The notes: generated by a model from the letters alone, not told the origin. 41,778 bases of DNA from an uncultured Ideonella sp. (GCA_964369025.1 CAYJEC010000001.1:1-41778), one strand, 5' to 3'; positions 12,379-33,486 are shown, counted from the first letter of the stretch. Numbers and translations: made by a program.

Positions 12379-13443
12379 TTATTTATTGATTAAATTTATT
12401 ATTGATTCGTACCTTAATTGATTTACTTTCTTTATGTCATAATATTCCCGAACATATCCGTTTAATGCTTTGCCCATCATTTGACCCTTTTTAGGATTCT
12501 TAATTAAATCTTTGATTCTATTTGTCCAGCCATCACTTGTATAGACTAAGCCATGACTTATAAACTCTTTGTAGGGTTCTACATTTGAACAGATAATAGG
12601 CAAACTGAATGCACCTGCCTCGAGGACTTTTAAGTTTGATTTGCACCTAGTGAATAAATCATCATACAAAGGGGCTAACATTAAATCACAATGGTTATAC
12701 CCATAAGCATAGTTATAAATATCTAACTCCTCAACTTTCAGAAAATGATTCTCCGGTAGTTTGCCTCCACTTGTAAAGATAGTAGTGATGTAATCCCAAT
12801 ACTTCTTAGATTCACCTTTCTTTGAATAACCCTCTACTAAAAGATTATAGTTCTTTTGACCTAGTAATTTGAATAAAGGGTTGTAAAGTAGTTCTACGTC
12901 TTTGTGGTGGTTTGCCCCTGCTATATACCCTATCGTATAACGGTCTTTCTTTTGCTTGTCAGGAGTGAACTGAGGTTGGTTAAAGTCAATAGCATTAGAT
13001 ACATATTGAAATTTATGTCCTATTATATCTCCATAGTCTTTCTCTAATTTACATTGTAAAAACTCACTTGCGCACCATACCAAATCAGCAAGCTGGATTG
13101 TTTCTTTTATCCTATCCTCTATTATTGGGGTATCAAAACCATCATTACCCATATGCCAGTCAGGCAATTCAATCCAATCGTCTAAGTCTAAAATGATTTT
13201 AACCCCTGCATCTTTTGCCCTTTTTAAGTAGTTTTCAGGTTGTTTGCTTAACCGGTTTAAAACAATAATGTCGTAAATAGTGGGCGGGTGTTCATAAGTA
13301 AATCCATTCTGAACTGTTATCTGTAAATCTTTATGGTCAGTACCTAAGTTTGAAAAAGGTATCTCTAAGCGGTGATAGTCCACCCCTGAAGTATTCTTAG
13401 AATCGAATAAAACACAGACTTTAATCATGATTCTTGCGCCCAT
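12379..13443 (-). CDS. Glycosyltransferase family 4 (GT-B)
   Basis: SGVDYHRLEIPF, DLDDW, KSNLKVLEAGAFSLPIICSNVEPY. Confidence 0.85.
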   Translation of the reverse strand: MGARIMIKVCVLFDSKNTSGVDYHRLEIPFSNLGTDHKDLQITVQNGFTYEHPPTIYDIIVLNRLSKQPENYLKRAKDAGVKIILDLDDWIELPDWHMGNDGFDTPIIEDRIKETIQLADLVWCASEFLQCKLEKDYGDIIGHKFQYVSNAIDFNQPQFTPDKQKKDRYTIGYIAGANHHKDVELLYNPLFKLLGQKNYNLLVEGYSKKGESKKYWDYITTIFTSGGKLPENHFLKVEELDIYNYAYGYNHCDLMLAPLYDDLFTRCKSNLKVLEAGAFSLPIICSNVEPYKEFISHGLVYTSDGWTNRIKDLIKNPKKGQMMGKALNGYVREYYDIKKVNQLRYESIINLINK

Positions 13444-21189: not shown

Positions 21190-22104
21190 CTATTTTTCAA
21201 AAGAGGCTGTATAATCCTCGATTGATTTAAATATCTGATAAGCGACTTGAGGGACTATTGCGTTACCGTATGCCTTTATACTTTCTTTTGCCCACTCTGA
21301 AAAGGTGATGTTATCCAACCCCCCGGGAATCCCATCATTTGCTCTACGAATAGGGGATTCAGTGGGCCATCCACCATCATTGAAAGCTCTATACTCTTTC
21401 CTATCTCCAGCCGTCTTTTTACTGAATTGTCCTTCGGGCCTCCCCTGTCCCTGTTGTCTGATGCAGTTGGTGTTGGTAGCATTTTTGTTGCTATCCTTCT
21501 CATTATTCGCCCTCCTTTGTCTAATCTCTTTAGGCTTTCCCAATTCGTATTGTAATCGTGAATCTCTCCGGCTGTTGGAGTAGGCAACAAACCAGACTCT
21601 ATCTCTCCTATGTGGAGCGTTGACGGCACAAGCTGGAAGTACATACGGGAATACTTCGTACCCCTCAGCTTCCAAATCAGCCTGCACTTCATCGAATACC
21701 AACCCTCCTGACCAATTAATAAGGCCGAAAACGTTTTCACCCACGACCCAACTTGGTCGAATTTCTCTAATTGCTCTAAGCATTTCAGGCCATAAGTGGC
21801 GGTCATCTTCTTTTCCCTTTCGTTTACCGGCAAGGCTGTAGGGTTGGCAAGGTCACGGGAACCCACCGACGAGAACAATGTCATTTGTCCTCCAGTGGGT
21901 TCCTTTTCGTTTTGTAAGTTCTGCATTTATTATGTCGTATGTGAGTGTTTTTATATCATCGTGGTGATAAGCATCAGGCCAGTAGTGTTTCAATATCTTT
22001 TGTCCGAAAGGATTTATTTCGCATGAGACAATATTCTCCCATCCCATCCATTCAGAGGCAAGTTCAAAACCACCAATACCACTAAAAAGGCTAACTAACT
22101 GCAC
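21190..22104 (-). CDS. dcm: C5-cytosine DNA methyltransferase, large subunit, interrupted by an in-frame TGA at 21853-21855
   Basis: GTG start at 22104: motif I SLFSGIGG, motif IV GGFP*PCQPYS, motif VI GENV, motif VIII HRRDRVW, motif X YGNAIVP, all in one frame. Confidence 0.85.
21276..21926 (-). CDS. Alternative-frame methyltransferase small subunit (TRD + motif IX)
   Basis: Nested ORF with two LPTPTA repeats and motif IX-like LNPLFVEQMMGFPGGW, which the main frame lacks; the true start is uncertain. Confidence 0.7.
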   Translation of the reverse strand: MQNLQNEKEPTGGQMTLFSSVGSRDLANPTALPVNEREKKMTATYGLKCLEQLEKFDQVGSWVKTFSALLIGQEGWYSMKCRLIWKLRGTKYSRMYFQLVPSTLHIGEIESGLLPTPTAGEIHDYNTNWESLKRLDKGGRIMRRIATKMLPTPTASDNRDRGGPKDNSVKRRLEIGKSIELSMMVDGPLNPLFVEQMMGFPGGWITSPFQSGQKKV

Positions 22105-22519
22105 GTTTCCTCCCTCTTGTAAATTGGTTATTATGGGGAGAATAAAGTCTTGTATGTTCAGATTTTGGCAAACATTCAAGATTTGAAATGTTGTTATTTG
22201 CCTTGTCCTCGTCTATATGGTGAATATCATATCCGGTTGGTATCTTACCTTTTTCTTTCTCCCAAACGTATCGGTGCATCAATCCTCTGCATCCAATAGT
22301 TAATGAATAATACCCAGTGTTTCTAAGTGTAAACTTTTTACCATCGTAAATCTGATAAGGTCTAAAATTAACCCCTCTTAAAGTGAACCCTCTCCCCTCA
22401 AAAGCTTTATATACACATTGCCTTGTTACACCTAATTCTTTGCCGACTTGATCTAATGACAGCCCTGATAGATATAAATCATAGGCTAAATCAAATTTTG
22501 TATCTTTTTTCCGTCCCAT
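22091..22519 (-). CDS. HNH endonuclease with N-terminal HTH
   Basis: GLSLDQVGKELGVTRQCV; MHRYVWE...IHHIDEDKANNNISNLECL...H. Likely start is the ATG at 22519, downstream of TACATTTG (22528-22535). Confidence 0.88.
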   Translation of the reverse strand: MGRKKDTKFDLAYDLYLSGLSLDQVGKELGVTRQCVYKAFEGRGFTLRGVNFRPYQIYDGKKFTLRNTGYYSLTIGCRGLMHRYVWEKEKGKIPTGYDIHHIDEDKANNNISNLECLPKSEHTRLYSPHNNQFTRGRKRAVS

Positions 22520-22602
22520 TATGTTTACAAATGTATATACTATTTTTGACAATTAAACACTTTTGTTTACTTATTTTGATTATTTTTCAATTATCTACCT
22601 GT

Positions 22603-29484: not shown

Positions 29485-32400
29485 TTAATATCTGTAAAGT
29501 GCTATTAACATTTGTTTATCAAAGTTAGGGGCAGTTGCGCTCGATGCAGTCAGGGTTATACCGGTCTGAATAGAAGTATAAGCCTTGTCGCTCAGTTCTG
29601 ATATTGTTTGAGTGTCTATTTCCCTTGATGTATATCCTGAAGGTGCAGTCCAAACCTGACCACCTGCATAATCACCTACATAGCACAAAGCGTATTCATA
29701 ATCCTGAACTGTTGTGAAGGATGCACTTGTTACGTTGTTACTTCCTGAACTTGTACCGGTTACTTGTTGTTCAAATGCGGTTATAGTTCCTGAATACTGA
29801 ACATAAGACAATTCTAAACTCGCATCAAAGGCACTTGCACCAAATGTAATCACGTTGTTAGCGTTACCTACACAATTAATACAACTGTAAATAGACTGTT
29901 TGAACTGTGAACTATAATAAGCATCTAGTGTATAGGTATTACCGGCAGTATCTGTCAAACTGCTTACACTTGTTGCGCTATAAGTCCTTATCGCTATAAA
30001 TACATGGTTTCCTGTTACTAAATTAAATGCCGGTGTTACTAATCCCAATTCAGGGGCTGATGCTGCAACACTATCAGAATTTACAAAGGTAAGATTTGAT
30101 GCCGGAACGCTATTAGTAACCGATTGGTCTGTATAACTTGCTAATTCTACACCGCCTCCAAAATCACCGCTTAAAGTGTCTCCAGTTCCTGAGTTATAAG
30201 ACCTTAACAAAGTGTCTCCGTTTGCCATAGCTGCTACTGTGAAATCCCAAACATTAGGGGCGAAAGATGCAACTGAACTAATAGCTAAATTACTGCCGTT
30301 CTTTTTAAATGAGTGACCTAAATTGGTCATGTCTACTGCCATATCAAAAGTCAATCTTATTGTGGTAGCGTTTATAGCTTCTGCCTCTGTTACAGTTGGT
30401 GCTGCTGATGCGGTTGTGTAATCAACATACTGTAAAGGTTGTACTGCAATAGCCCTGAACCCTTCGCCTGAAGATTCTGATACTGCTATTACTCTTACCG
30501 TAGTAGGTGCGTCTGCATTGGCAGTAGGGTCAAAATAATCTACATAAACCTTATCATATCCTTCATAGGTCATTTCACAACCTAACGCATTAGTAATAAT
30601 TTCAAAGGATTTCCAGTCTGCTAAGTAATTATTAAAGATTGTACCTGCTGAACTATTTAAAACTACGGTATCATTTAATCTTAACTTGTAATTGCTAACA
30701 AATAAATTCATCCCCACTTGTGCAATTATTTTGTCTGTATCATCTAGCACCTGAACCATTACATTAGATTCATCTGTAGGCTCTGTACCGTTATAATCCA
30801 TAAAGGTTACATCACCATAGACTTTCCATCTTTTCATTGCTGGATTAGCGGTGAAATCATCACAATCTACATACTGACTAGTCCCCTCTGTTCCACTTGC
30901 TACCAACCTTACATATAAATCAGGTGTAGGGTCTATGGGCTGCATGATATTTGTCTGAACTTTAAAGGTAGAGGATTCTGCTGCCGACCTTACTATATTT
31001 GCAGTATTAGCGTGAATAGATCGCGGGGTCAATTGTTCAAGTAAGTTAGTTCCTTCAAGTGGTACTGATACCGGAGGAACAATATCTACTGTCTGAATAG
31101 CTATTGAACTTACACCTGTGATAATATCTAATTGACTTGCACCGTGATACCCCTCATCCCTTCTCGTTACAATCAAAGTATCTGCATTGTAATAAAAGAA
31201 TCTGAATGCACCACTATTACCTGACGCTCTTACCCCATAAGGCCCGATAGCATCTGACCTCCATCTATCCGTTCCAAACTGTCTTATAGGTATGCCGGTT
31301 TTGTGGTAAAAATTCATGTAGTTTACCTGCTTTCCTTTAAATCCTTCACAGTTAAAGCAAAGTAGTAAAATATCCCCGTCTGCCTGTACGTCCTGGAATG
31401 TATCTTGAACATCATTGCCGGCCTCCATATAATGAAGGACAGGGAATTGACCTCTATGACCTAAGTAACCTGCTGCACCCTCATCAGGTTGAGATGTAAG
31501 TCTTAATATATCCCAAAGTTTATCCCCTGTGGTCATATCATAAGCCCCTAAGTGTCTGAATGCCGTGGTAGTGGTTTCTTTGTTTTTTACAATAGCTATA
31601 TTATCGTCAAATTTACAGTTAAATGCTGCGTTACCGGCCTCTATAATCTCATCATCTGAGGCAATAGGTTGTAAGGTACATACTGTTACCCATCCACTAT
31701 AAACAGGGTTGTTTGACCCATCAAATGAAGTAATAGTCTTTTTTCTTAATATAGGGGTCTGTCCAGCTAGATAGGATGCTGAATAAATTTGCCAAATAGT
31801 GAAGTCTTCGTCTAGGAAATTACCAAAAAACAAACCTGATTCATTAATATAAACACCGGTGTATCTTATGCCTGAATTAGTCAACTCGACAATCTCTGTA
31901 CTTACGTTAGGAGGATAGGTTGAGTTATCATCTAAGGTTGCGTAAGTTCTACCGTTTGACAATGTGCTAACCCATCCAAAATCAGAGTAACCCTGAGTAT
32001 AATGGTCAACATCTATCTGAGCCATAAAGTTTCTTACATAAGTCCACGTTCCACTTGTTGTGATGTCGAACTCATGACCCATTATATAGAGTTTTAAAGG
32101 ATTAGTATGATTTAAACTTACCCCATAAACTGCCGGAAACTGTTGTATAGTATCTACATAAGTCTTAGTATATGAAGGATAAGCAATGTTATAAATCTGA
32201 ACCCTATTACAACCTATATCCCCAATCAATAAATCACCATTTGAATTGTCGTAACTTAAATGCGGTGTTTCAAGCCCTTTAGTAAGTCCGGTTGTATAAT
32301 CTGAAAAACTAAACCTATCGTTTGCTACTACTGCCGTACTCTGATACCCTCCGGTCTGTCCTAATGTCCAAAGTAATTTACTACCGGCTGGATATTGTGG

Positions 32401-33486
32401 TGCAATGTTAAATCCTTGAACGTATTGGTTAGAACCTCCCGAAATAACTGCTAATACATTATTTGTCTGGTCAATTGCTATTGTTAATTTATCAGTAGGG
32501 AAGTCAGAGATAGTAAGAAGTCCTAATGTAATGTCTCCGTCTACTGGGTTTACCTCTCCTAACAACATCCCTTTCGTTCCGAAGTTATCACCTAGCATCC
32601 AAACACTATCCCATAACTCATGGTATGCAAGTTCACACGGTGCGGTAAATGCGGTAATATTTGATGTTAAAGCCCCTGAAGGGGTTGCACCGCTTATGTC
32701 AAAAGCATAAATTTCATCTAATGCTTCACACGCTAACCATAAATAATCATTTGAACACGCTAATCCTGAAGGTGTATTCGCTGAATTAGTACTTATTCCT
32801 ATTGCATTAGGGTAGGTTATACCTGCTACTGCCGATTTAGAAGTTCCTGATGTTAATGCTAGTTGCGTTCCGTCTGATGTCTTTATTCCATATACCCAAG
32901 AATGACCATTACCAACGTCTACCCCTGCATAGAATACATAATCACCGTTAGGTGTTGCACAAACATACTCAGTTGATAAATTAGTATAGTTGCTTGACGG
33001 TGTAAAGTTCAAATAGTTTGCAGACTGAATATCTACCGCCCTGTCTACATACATTCCTATATTATTATTCCCTTCGTTAAAGGAATAACCCATATAGATT
33101 CTTGTTCCGGTTACTACGGTTCTTACTACCCTGGAATAACCTGCAAATGTAGTAGCACCATAATTTAAAGTAGCAGTATTCCCAACAGTATACCAATTGT
33201 CTGTTAAATTACTTGTAAGTATCTTAGCCTCAAAGTCAGACCCTGCAACTGGATTGCCTCTATCGTCTAGTCCGTCCCATTCAATTTCATAAGTACCTGC
33301 TAATTTATATTCATAGACATACAATGTCCTTAGTAATGTTTTAACATCACCTGTATCTGATTTTACAACTATTGCAATACCTCCGACAAATGCCGGTGAT
33401 GACAAAGTGTAATATCCAACAACTGCCGGAGCGGGTTGCCCTGCCTTTCGTGGTCTTAATGAAATTGCGGTACTTATTCCTAGCAT
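29485..33486 (-). CDS. Large multidomain virion/receptor-binding protein (FlgD Ig-like + beta-propeller-like + Ig-like + C-terminal beta domain)
   Basis: AGTYEIEWDGLDDRGNPV (FlgD-Ig-like), IGDIGCNRVQI (NHL-like), APTVTEAEAINATTIRLTFDMAV (Ig-like); S/T/G-rich. Confidence 0.6.
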   Translation of the reverse strand: MLGISTAISLRPRKAGQPAPAVVGYYTLSSPAFVGGIAIVVKSDTGDVKTLLRTLYVYEYKLAGTYEIEWDGLDDRGNPVAGSDFEAKILTSNLTDNWYTVGNTATLNYGATTFAGYSRVVRTVVTGTRIYMGYSFNEGNNNIGMYVDRAVDIQSANYLNFTPSSNYTNLSTEYVCATPNGDYVFYAGVDVGNGHSWVYGIKTSDGTQLALTSGTSKSAVAGITYPNAIGISTNSANTPSGLACSNDYLWLACEALDEIYAFDISGATPSGALTSNITAFTAPCELAYHELWDSVWMLGDNFGTKGMLLGEVNPVDGDITLGLLTISDFPTDKLTIAIDQTNNVLAVISGGSNQYVQGFNIAPQYPAGSKLLWTLGQTGGYQSTAVVANDRFSFSDYTTGLTKGLETPHLSYDNSNGDLLIGDIGCNRVQIYNIAYPSYTKTYVDTIQQFPAVYGVSLNHTNPLKLYIMGHEFDITTSGTWTYVRNFMAQIDVDHYTQGYSDFGWVSTLSNGRTYATLDDNSTYPPNVSTEIVELTNSGIRYTGVYINESGLFFGNFLDEDFTIWQIYSASYLAGQTPILRKKTITSFDGSNNPVYSGWVTVCTLQPIASDDEIIEAGNAAFNCKFDDNIAIVKNKETTTTAFRHLGAYDMTTGDKLWDILRLTSQPDEGAAGYLGHRGQFPVLHYMEAGNDVQDTFQDVQADGDILLLCFNCEGFKGKQVNYMNFYHKTGIPIRQFGTDRWRSDAIGPYGVRASGNSGAFRFFYYNADTLIVTRRDEGYHGASQLDIITGVSSIAIQTVDIVPPVSVPLEGTNLLEQLTPRSIHANTANIVRSAAESSTFKVQTNIMQPIDPTPDLYVRLVASGTEGTSQYVDCDDFTANPAMKRWKVYGDVTFMDYNGTEPTDESNVMVQVLDDTDKIIAQVGMNLFVSNYKLRLNDTVVLNSSAGTIFNNYLADWKSFEIITNALGCEMTYEGYDKVYVDYFDPTANADAPTTVRVIAVSESSGEGFRAIAVQPLQYVDYTTASAAPTVTEAEAINATTIRLTFDMAVDMTNLGHSFKKNGSNLAISSVASFAPNVWDFTVAAMANGDTLLRSYNSGTGDTLSGDFGGGVELASYTDQSVTNSVPASNLTFVNSDSVAASAPELGLVTPAFNLVTGNHVFIAIRTYSATSVSSLTDTAGNTYTLDAYYSSQFKQSIYSCINCVGNANNVITFGASAFDASLELSYVQYSGTITAFEQQVTGTSSGSNNVTSASFTTVQDYEYALCYVGDYAGGQVWTAPSGYTSREIDTQTISELSDKAYTSIQTGITLTASSATAPNFDKQMLIALYRY

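Follow-up and report, generated by a model that had tools for sequence, protein, structure and literature searches.

A stop-codon insert in the catalytic motif of phage C5-methyltransferase genes is linked to an HNH endonuclease in a probable homing cassette

In a tailed-phage contig, a two-frame C5-methyltransferase gene (dcm) of the M.EcoHK31I-like type was found to carry a 6-nt insert, a stop codon followed by a Pro codon, between its catalytic Pro and Cys codons, and its start is overlapped by an HTH-HNH endonuclease gene. We read the locus as a mobile cassette, made up of the HTH-HNH gene, a replacement 5' third of the methyltransferase gene and the stop insert, seated on a resident 3' part. 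The whole model, which we hold to be moderately likely, comprises this cassette, HNH cutting at or near the codons for GGFPCQ, immunity of the cassette through the insert, and a ribosomal hop from CCG to CCT.

The window, which is the whole stretch of DNA analysed, is the entire 41.8-kb contig C1 of the genome bin G000 and carries terminase, portal, tape-measure-like and NinG genes. Its GC content is 36%, against 67% for the bin, and the phage contig is mis-binned there. Because of this GC mismatch, the bin organism is unlikely to be the host, and neither a search of 400 genomes of the bin's phylum, which gave no match, nor the tRNA set of the bin is informative on the host. TAnnTTTG is a promoter consensus in Bacteroidota, and such motifs ahead of several genes point to a host in that phylum. 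The 46 ORFs of the window end in TAA (24), TGA (15) or TAG (7), and no tRNA gene was found in it. A 1333-aa protein (29485-33486) had no PHROG match at E 1e-5, and a glycosyltransferase gene (phrog_7162) lies at 12379-13443.

The features of the locus are as follows.

22524..22537, minus strand: palindrome with TAnnTTTG (22535-22528), a candidate -7 element and/or operator for the HTH protein
22091..22519, minus strand: HTH-HNH endonuclease gene, type A, 142 aa (Pfam, alignment of relatives, structure model, dN/dS)
22109..22113, minus strand: GGAGG, resembling a ribosome-binding site, inside the HNH gene and 4 nt before the dcm GTG (sequence)
21856..22104, minus strand: cassette-borne 5' part of the alpha chain, motifs I-III to GGFP, 83 aa (Pfam DNA_methylase)
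21856..21858, minus strand: predicted take-off codon CCG (Pro), after TTC (Phe)
21850..21855, minus strand: 6-nt insert TGA CCT, stop plus predicted landing codon (sequence comparison)
21190..21849, minus strand: 3' part of the alpha chain, catalytic Cys to motif X, 219 aa (Pfam E 1.4e-28)
21276..21926, minus strand: beta-chain ORF in the +1 frame with motif IX, LNPLFVEQMMGFP (phrog_1008 E 1e-23)

The HNH ORF runs on the minus strand from ATG 22519 to TAG 22093-22091, and the dcm GTG at 22104 overlaps its end by 14 nt. The ORF coordinates thus bear out the original prediction, made from the sequence of the window, that an HTH-HNH gene overlaps the dcm start (stop 22091, GTG 22104), and the distance of about 240 nt that it gave between HNH and insert was measured as 236 nt from the HNH stop to the TGA at 21855-21853. 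Motif IV reads GGT GGG TTC CCG TGA CCT TGC CAA. Beyond the TGA the alpha frame stays open as far as TAG 21190, with TGC (Cys) at 21849-21847 followed by motifs VI, VIII and X, and the predicted hop product has 302 aa. Motifs I-VIII and X lie in one frame and motif IX in an overlapping frame, which is the M.EcoHK31I-type layout and goes unmentioned in the original prediction, and a long variable segment is present in both frames. The beta chain, whose frame is kept open by the 6-nt insert, would be read in the +1 frame with no recoding, and possible starts are ATG 21926, 21884 (after GGAGG) and 21806. Among the 80 best relatives of the window's 3' part, GGFPCQ was matched directly in 78, one (L072) has an insert and one (L040) was found intact after a closer look. 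An assembly error was rejected, as contigs of two runs of one study (X1, which may be the source of the window, and X2) span the site without differences. A contig from a second study (X5) spans HNH and insert with no gap there, with 80 differing letters and one gap (22574) overall.

Viral, genome and metagenome collections (37 of 64 parts of the last) were scanned with a pattern that left the middle codon free between two Pro codons. The scan gave 243 matches, same-contig repeats counted, and all 122 in dcm context had a stop as the middle codon (64 TGA, 31 TAG, 27 TAA); the 121 outside dcm context were set aside, and these include L145, a cut-off dcm with TAA that scored below the dcm-context threshold. 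When nine bases were left free between GGF and CQP in the viral collection, the stop stood in the middle in 80/80, preceded by CCN in 79/80 and followed by YYN in 80/80. A stop at the middle codon by chance is excluded by these counts (122/122 and 80/80).

Inserts of 7 and 9 nt were obtained from variable-gap scans and nuclease-anchored fetches. Pooling gave 133 distinct contexts, that is, 134 matches less the chance match L513, with 117 inserts of 6 nt, 10 of 9 nt and 6 of 7 nt; also dropped were L553, a chance match, and L641, whose contig ends 16 nt past the Pro codon. A stop codon is present in all 133 contexts, at the start of the insert in 130 and after one sense codon (CAA or CGA) in 3, and many 9-nt inserts hold two stops. 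Directly ahead of the Cys codon stands CCN in 86 of the 133 and YYN in 128, and at least one C of the two is kept in 132; the non-CCN landings are CTN, TCN, TTA, ACA, ACG and GCG. Take-off and landing codons are the same in 29 of the 134 matches, and in the 133 contexts they differ at the wobble base at most in 86 (the CCG/CCT of the window included) and at base 1 or 2 in 47. The hosts of insert-bearing genes are wide-ranging; among the named records are bins of Oscillospiraceae and an isolate, Muriventricola aceti H5_61 (L185), in which a type B cassette lies in a prophage. The stop insert is therefore a recurrent family trait of phage methyltransferase genes. Among individual alleles, L407 reads CAT TAA CCA, with His replacing the take-off Pro, and L644-L646 and L671 read CCT CGA/CAA TGA CCY, with a sense codon ahead of the stop.

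The linkage of nuclease and insert was counted with profiles built from the loci, for genes within 1.3 kb upstream and, among intact alleles, for those with at least 800 nt of flank. A nuclease or its remnant was present upstream of 63/99 insert alleles (41 type A, 22 type B), compared with 1/82 intact alleles, and was undetectable at the other 36/99. Three of the 63 are C-terminal remnants, one is a gene that has an internal stop, and two are matches to a different HNH. The sole intact allele with a nuclease (L069) has a different nuclease and an orphan gene start, and its motif I holds a 5-nt stop insert. The Fisher p of 2e-21 is overstated, because kin are non-independent and the intact set is weighted to close relatives of the window. 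Phylogenetically independent pairs on the 3'-part tree pointed in the same direction, with 4 and 7 supported pairs and a median p of 0.5, an underpowered comparison. Most of the raw association stems from one or two linked cassette families, with few independent origins.

Counted from the nuclease side, the dcm that follows is interrupted at 21 of the 23 close type A loci and is an uninterrupted AGIPCQ gene at one (L342), and one locus lacks dcm (L328); three distant partial HNH matches (L344-L346) were left out. The co-occurrence of HNH and insert on which the original prediction turned was thus found in both counts. Among the 38 best type B loci, 29 have the insert and one is cut off; four precede uninterrupted, divergent motifs (GSAPCQ, GGYPCQ, GSCPCQ and GSMPCQ in L655, L656, L663 and L669), one lacks dcm (L670), and in three (L658, L666, L668) the nuclease follows motif IV or a methylase-like gene. 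A further 37 of the 80 type B hits (L677-L713) stand outside these counts. Among the 23 close type A and 38 top type B loci, no uninterrupted GGFPCQ was found directly downstream of the nuclease.

The two parts of the gene have different histories. In FastTree trees of 102 dereplicated alleles near the window, built from few columns, the insert/intact label switches 6 times along the tree of the 5' part, against 24 times along that of the 3' part (about 34 in shuffles), and the nearest neighbor of an insert allele is also an insert allele in 50/54 cases for the 5' part and in 28/54 for the 3' part. The window follows this pattern: all eight of its nearest 5' parts belong to insert alleles, and its 3' part is 93% identical to that of the intact L006 (89 columns compared). 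Nucleotide differences between insert and intact alleles peak just 5' of the insert and are smaller 3' of it; the third base of the second Gly reaches 0.87, and synonymous and non-synonymous differences 5' of the insert are both large.

Orphan motif-I stubs lie upstream of HNH in 13/41 type A loci, compared with 0/80 intact loci. These stubs are the old gene start (MKHGSLFSGIG and longer forms) ahead of the HNH promoter, and their end points differ; the window has no such stub. In a few alleles (L118, L214) the insert follows an intact-type 5' part and no nuclease is present, the outcome expected of short conversion tracts. The fetched loci contained no sibling phage whose flanking genes were the same and whose site was empty. 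Mosaic trees and stubs indicate a patchy distribution with repeated insertion at one conserved site, and the linkage and mobility of the cassette are well supported, at a level that we regard as very likely to hold. The original prediction of a homing system agrees with the co-occurrence and with the gene mosaic; the mobile unit is larger than the HNH and insert that it named, since it carries replacement motifs I-III.

The HNH of the window matches Pfam HNH_3 (E 4e-18) at residues 81-124, with a weak N-terminal HTH, and thus combines an intact catalytic motif with a DNA-binding domain, as expected of a homing endonuclease. The catalytic-type residues H100, H101, N109, N113 and H122 are invariant across 21 relatives, the strict HNH motif is present in 18/20 type A genes, and dN/dS of the type A HNH is about 0.20. 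I-HmuI (1u3e) was the top match of the structure model (Foldseek E 0.086; VIA Z 7.7, rmsd 2.9, 76 aligned), under the tool's level for a clear match. A sequence search of PDB returned HTH matches only. No close cultivated relative of the type A nuclease was found in 50,697 phage records, where all matches were below 60%. The type B nuclease has the same HTH, followed by a Cys/His-rich nuclease-like domain with no Pfam HNH match. One phage record covers 80% of the type B query, at 32% identity, and tblastn matches of the type B nuclease carry HNH or endonuclease VII annotation.

The original prediction also gave the HNH gene its own TAnnTTTG promoter. The motif is present at 22535-22528 and recurs across the family, 3-16 nt (mostly 4 nt) before the ATG in 20/28 distinct upstream regions of relatives; on the same strand of the window, however, it occurs 34 times, and the copy at issue is part of a palindrome, which in relatives lies around the -33 element. 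A dedicated HNH promoter is therefore likely for the family, while its exact position in the window is uncertain. In type A loci and at 22524-22560 of the window, we observed a conserved palindrome, TTTRCAWWTGTMAA, around the -33 element, with TAnnTTTG 4 nt before the ATG. The type A HNH transcript is likely leaderless, and the palindrome is a possible autoregulatory operator for the HTH.

To judge whether the interrupted gene is maintained, selection was assessed on each side of the insert. One alternative, which we consider very improbable, is that the stop kills the methylase and that the 3' part is intact merely because the cassette invaded recently. A premature stop ahead of the catalytic Cys would fit this, as would the loss of the alpha-frame motif X (strict pattern) from 11/84 insert alleles, compared with 3/81 intact alleles; in several of these insert alleles the motif lies in the other frame or was cut by the fetch. 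Over 60 codons outside the HNH overlap, however, the median pairwise dN/dS of the 5' part was 0.22 for insert alleles (51) and 0.15 for intact alleles (61), so that purifying selection acts on the cassette-borne 5' part at a mean identity of about 56%; the landing triplet, too, is conserved. Motif X of alpha and motif IX of beta occur together in 70/84 insert and 69/81 intact alleles. Downstream of the insert, ENV is kept in 95/95 and RxR in 94/95, and the out-of-frame 7-nt alleles inspected (L631, L632, L649, L654, L662, L667) keep the downstream motifs of both frames.

As an intact 3' part would also be expected after a recent invasion, we turned to 29 disjoint insert pairs sharing the 3' part as well as the 60 nt ahead of the site, with 29 intact pairs for comparison. 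In a dead alpha chain, changes at the first codon position, silent in beta, should outpace the others. The 3' alpha-frame differences by codon position were 0.29/0.15/0.56 in the insert pairs and 0.29/0.13/0.58 in the intact pairs (p 0.61); pairs sharing cassette and host gene thus show the intact-type pattern, which argues against a dead methylase. Both halves of the gene are under selection, and the predicted products of the insert-bearing genes are probably active methylases.

How the Cys codon is reached is best explained by a ribosome hop over the insert, which we consider quite likely. The hop would be made by peptidyl-tRNA-Pro, given that the insert codon is only ever a stop, that the gap is 6, 7 or 9 nt and that the landing triplet is conserved and CCN-like. 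Termination at Phe-Pro-stop would be slow; the peptidyl-tRNA-Pro would release CCG, slide 6 nt (7 or 9 in relatives) and re-pair at the CCN-like triplet, and translation would restart at Cys, restoring GGFPCQ. TTC precedes the Pro codon in 123/127 insert alleles, a count partly forced by the pattern, and in 80/80 in the scan that allowed TTT. CCC stands at take-off in 4/127 insert alleles, compared with 27/101 intact alleles. These two features fit slow termination after Phe-Pro and avoidance of a +1 slip: Pro before a stop slows termination, penultimate Phe adds to this, and UUC_CCC_UGA in pheL gives a +1 slip at 15%, as reported in PMC3082878. Against the hop, landings are often mismatched for the take-off pairing, and re-pairing would then often be poor; the three alleles in which CAA or CGA precedes the stop speak against it as well. 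Folding z means in 60 insert alleles (+0.55, +0.09, -0.52) were not below those of intact alleles and gave no sign of a stimulatory RNA structure. A Shine-Dalgarno push is known from the prfB layout. Here GGNGGS lies one codon before the Pro at a suggestive spacing, and intact alleles have a better GGAGG.

A +1 frameshift into the beta frame was rejected as the main route, as it would skip the catalytic Cys and CCC is depleted at take-off. Selenocysteine, a suppressor tRNA and an alternative code were likewise rejected, as all three stops are used and the phage has no tRNA, and so was a group I intron or intein, the insert being only 6 nt and the HNH lying outside the gene.

Readthrough, by a suppressor tRNA, an alternative code or otherwise, would place two further residues into the catalytic loop. 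In its favor, the most frequent insert lengths (6 and 9 nt) preserve the frame, and UGA-C is a weak terminator context (PMC3082878); yet all three stops occur, 6-nt alleles never have a sense codon at that place, six alleles are out of frame and 9-nt alleles often have two stops. The residue before Cys would moreover be Leu, Ser, Thr or Ala in alleles with other landings, and the phage, which encodes no tRNA, ends its genes with all three stops. We regard readthrough as highly improbable.

An improbable account keeps the catalytic part and dispenses with the hop, through re-initiation with fragment complementation or through removal of the insert from the RNA. The frequent mismatches of the landing codons agree with it, as do a few type B loci, for example L654, in which motifs I-III are in a different frame from the nuclease and motif IV, so that either a split protein must be tolerated or the locus is broken. 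Most alleles (CCN, CTA, TCA) lack a usable start between stop and Cys, and the first in-frame ATG of the window lies 22 codons past the Cys, which argues against re-initiation. Six bases are too few for a self-splicing intron, and an in-frame stop would be unnecessary for an event at the RNA level. The hop thus remains our preferred route to the Cys codon.

In the homing cycle that we propose, intact alleles are likely nicked or cut by HNH within or close to the conserved codons for GGFPCQ, a site that the insert likely spoils in the copy carried by the cassette. During mixed infection, the cassette would be copied into the intact gene as the cut is repaired; the right-hand crossover would fall just past the insert, and the left-hand one would sometimes leave a stub of the old gene start behind. 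That the insert confers immunity is plausible and, if the rest of the model is granted, fairly likely.

In a rather unlikely alternative, cassette and hop are real, but the divergent 5' sequence is the source of immunity or cutting by HNH takes place at another site; the insert would then be used otherwise, to throttle methylase output or as the stop codon of an in-frame type B nuclease. The large differences directly beside the insert on its 5' side could by themselves confer immunity. Consistent with the second use, type B nucleases often lie in frame inside the 5' part of the methylase, between motifs III and IV, with their own Met, and end at the insert's stop. Some HNH relatives also precede uninterrupted, divergent motif IV alleles, and the insert persists at the 36/99 loci without a nuclease. 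Against this alternative, uninterrupted GGFPCQ is missing directly downstream of the nuclease in all 23 type A and 38 type B loci, and in the mobA element polymorphisms of the replacement region spare nicking while the gap blocks it. An insert without a nuclease also has a parallel in gene 60, whose gap likewise persists after nuclease loss. L099, L108, L109, L632 and L633 are examples of in-frame type B genes, and after a hop the nuclease would form an internal domain of the product. In L210, L230, L375, L641 and L654 the frame of the type B nuclease differs from that of motifs I-III, and the methylase would be split or broken ahead of motif IV.

The nearest known system is mobA/gene 60 of phage T4. 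The protection of gene 60 by its gap, cited in the original prediction as a proposal, has been shown by experiment: the gap blocks nicking and replacement-region polymorphisms do not (Bonocora 2011, as described in 10.1101/2022.08.31.505936). According to the same source, the mobA element ends at or just past the landing codon and the gap persists after nuclease loss. As in T4 (PMC5009743), an HNH gene overlaps an element-encoded replacement of the target, which is followed by a stop-first gap to a landing codon; both systems show repeated insertion, with the nuclease swapped or lost and the gap kept. The gene 60-type arrangement of a stop (or slow) codon directly after take-off and a gap to the landing codon is thus present here. 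The systems differ, as far as gene 60 is described in these sources, in the target (a C5-methyltransferase catalytic motif here, a topoisomerase in T4), the gap (6-9 nt against about 50), the take-off residue (Pro against Gly/Asp), the landing (here often mismatched at the first or second base, with no stem-loop found), the nuclease (142 aa with an N-terminal HTH against 269-279 aa for MobA) and the extent of the element, which here replaces the whole gene start and in T4 splits the gene in two. Membership in the mobA/gene 60 family was rejected, because the host gene is a C5-methyltransferase, whereas members of that family sit in the topoisomerase II large-subunit gene, with CTE/NTE tails and a MobA homologue. 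Of the proposed minimal, intron-free analogue of mobA/gene 60, the architecture matches; the unit is larger, including motifs I-III, and it works alike without being a member.

Synthetic stop-hops in Escherichia coli (PMC5009743) have matched or near-matched codons flanking a stop, so that nine nucleotides give one amino acid and the product is in frame and two residues shorter than by readthrough, as predicted here. As reported there, those hops are low-level and unprogrammed, whereas the arrangement here is natural and conserved, with a hop predicted from the sequence; that 2016 review knew of no natural in-frame stop-hop. The 10-nt bypasses in the terminase of the Streptomyces phage Hau3 (PMC10732093) likewise have a very short gap in a phage gene. 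That bypass was seen by mass spectrometry in E. coli with the slow codon made a stop; the natural slow codon is the rare UUA, interpreted as a developmental control, and the word homing is absent from the text of that paper. A further near bypass case is given in 10.1101/2024.12.09.627546. The ShiLan domain and the HNH elements of Pacc40, Sashimi and Tiff81 (PMC11855218) likewise lie inside or upstream of actinophage methylase genes with no intron or intein; unlike the present cassettes, they are described there as read straight through, with no stops; no mention of a stop insert in the catalytic motif was found there, and the words bypass and frameshift are absent from that text. M.EcoHK31I (PMC2836561) likewise has motifs I-VIII and X in its alpha chain and motif IX in a beta chain in another frame, but its motif IV is uninterrupted and the source gives no linked nuclease of the HNH kind. 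The element was not described in the literature on bypassing, stop hopping and homing HNH in methylases, which was covered mostly through the main texts of open-access papers.

Natural programmed bypassing is known from very few cases. If the hop is true, it would be the smallest natural bypass, and the gene 60 solution, in which a non-coding gap protects the DNA from a homing nuclease and leaves the protein unchanged, would have had a second origin, in a different gene and range of hosts. With 133 natural variants, an allelic series for the study of landing requirements is already at hand, and the system is small, so that a reporter plasmid and a 60-bp cleavage substrate suffice for its study. 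Gene callers would split such methylase genes or call them pseudogenes, although they are probably active, to judge from their sequences.

A second insertion site was also observed. A 5-nt stop-first insert interrupts motif I, FSGI/GGF (for example ATT TGACT GGA), in L037, L069, L231, L261, L633, L644 and L667, and 5 of these 7 loci also have the motif IV insert, so that two hops per gene would be required. Tentatively, and with somewhat less than even confidence, we suggest that stop-hops of 5-9 nt in catalytic motifs are immunity marks of widespread homing cassettes in phage methyltransferase genes, occurring in dozens of variants and relying on a slow Phe-Pro-stop and, in this lineage, a release-blocking TnaC-like peptide encoded by the cassette, with no RNA structure.

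The nascent peptide before the stop in the window (21856-21894), WRTNDIVLVGGFP, has the spacing of TnaC, with Trp at -12 and Asp at -8. TnaC has W12, D16 and P24 at this spacing and a Trp-dependent block of release, as reported in PMC8450073 and PMC3082878. Among type A peptides the Trp is present in 25/26 and the Asp in 22/26, and among type B peptides in 1/28 and 0/28. A loop longer by 12 residues is specific to the cassette-borne 5' part, and the bases that encode the type A Trp and Asp double as GGAG-ATG, a possible beta start.
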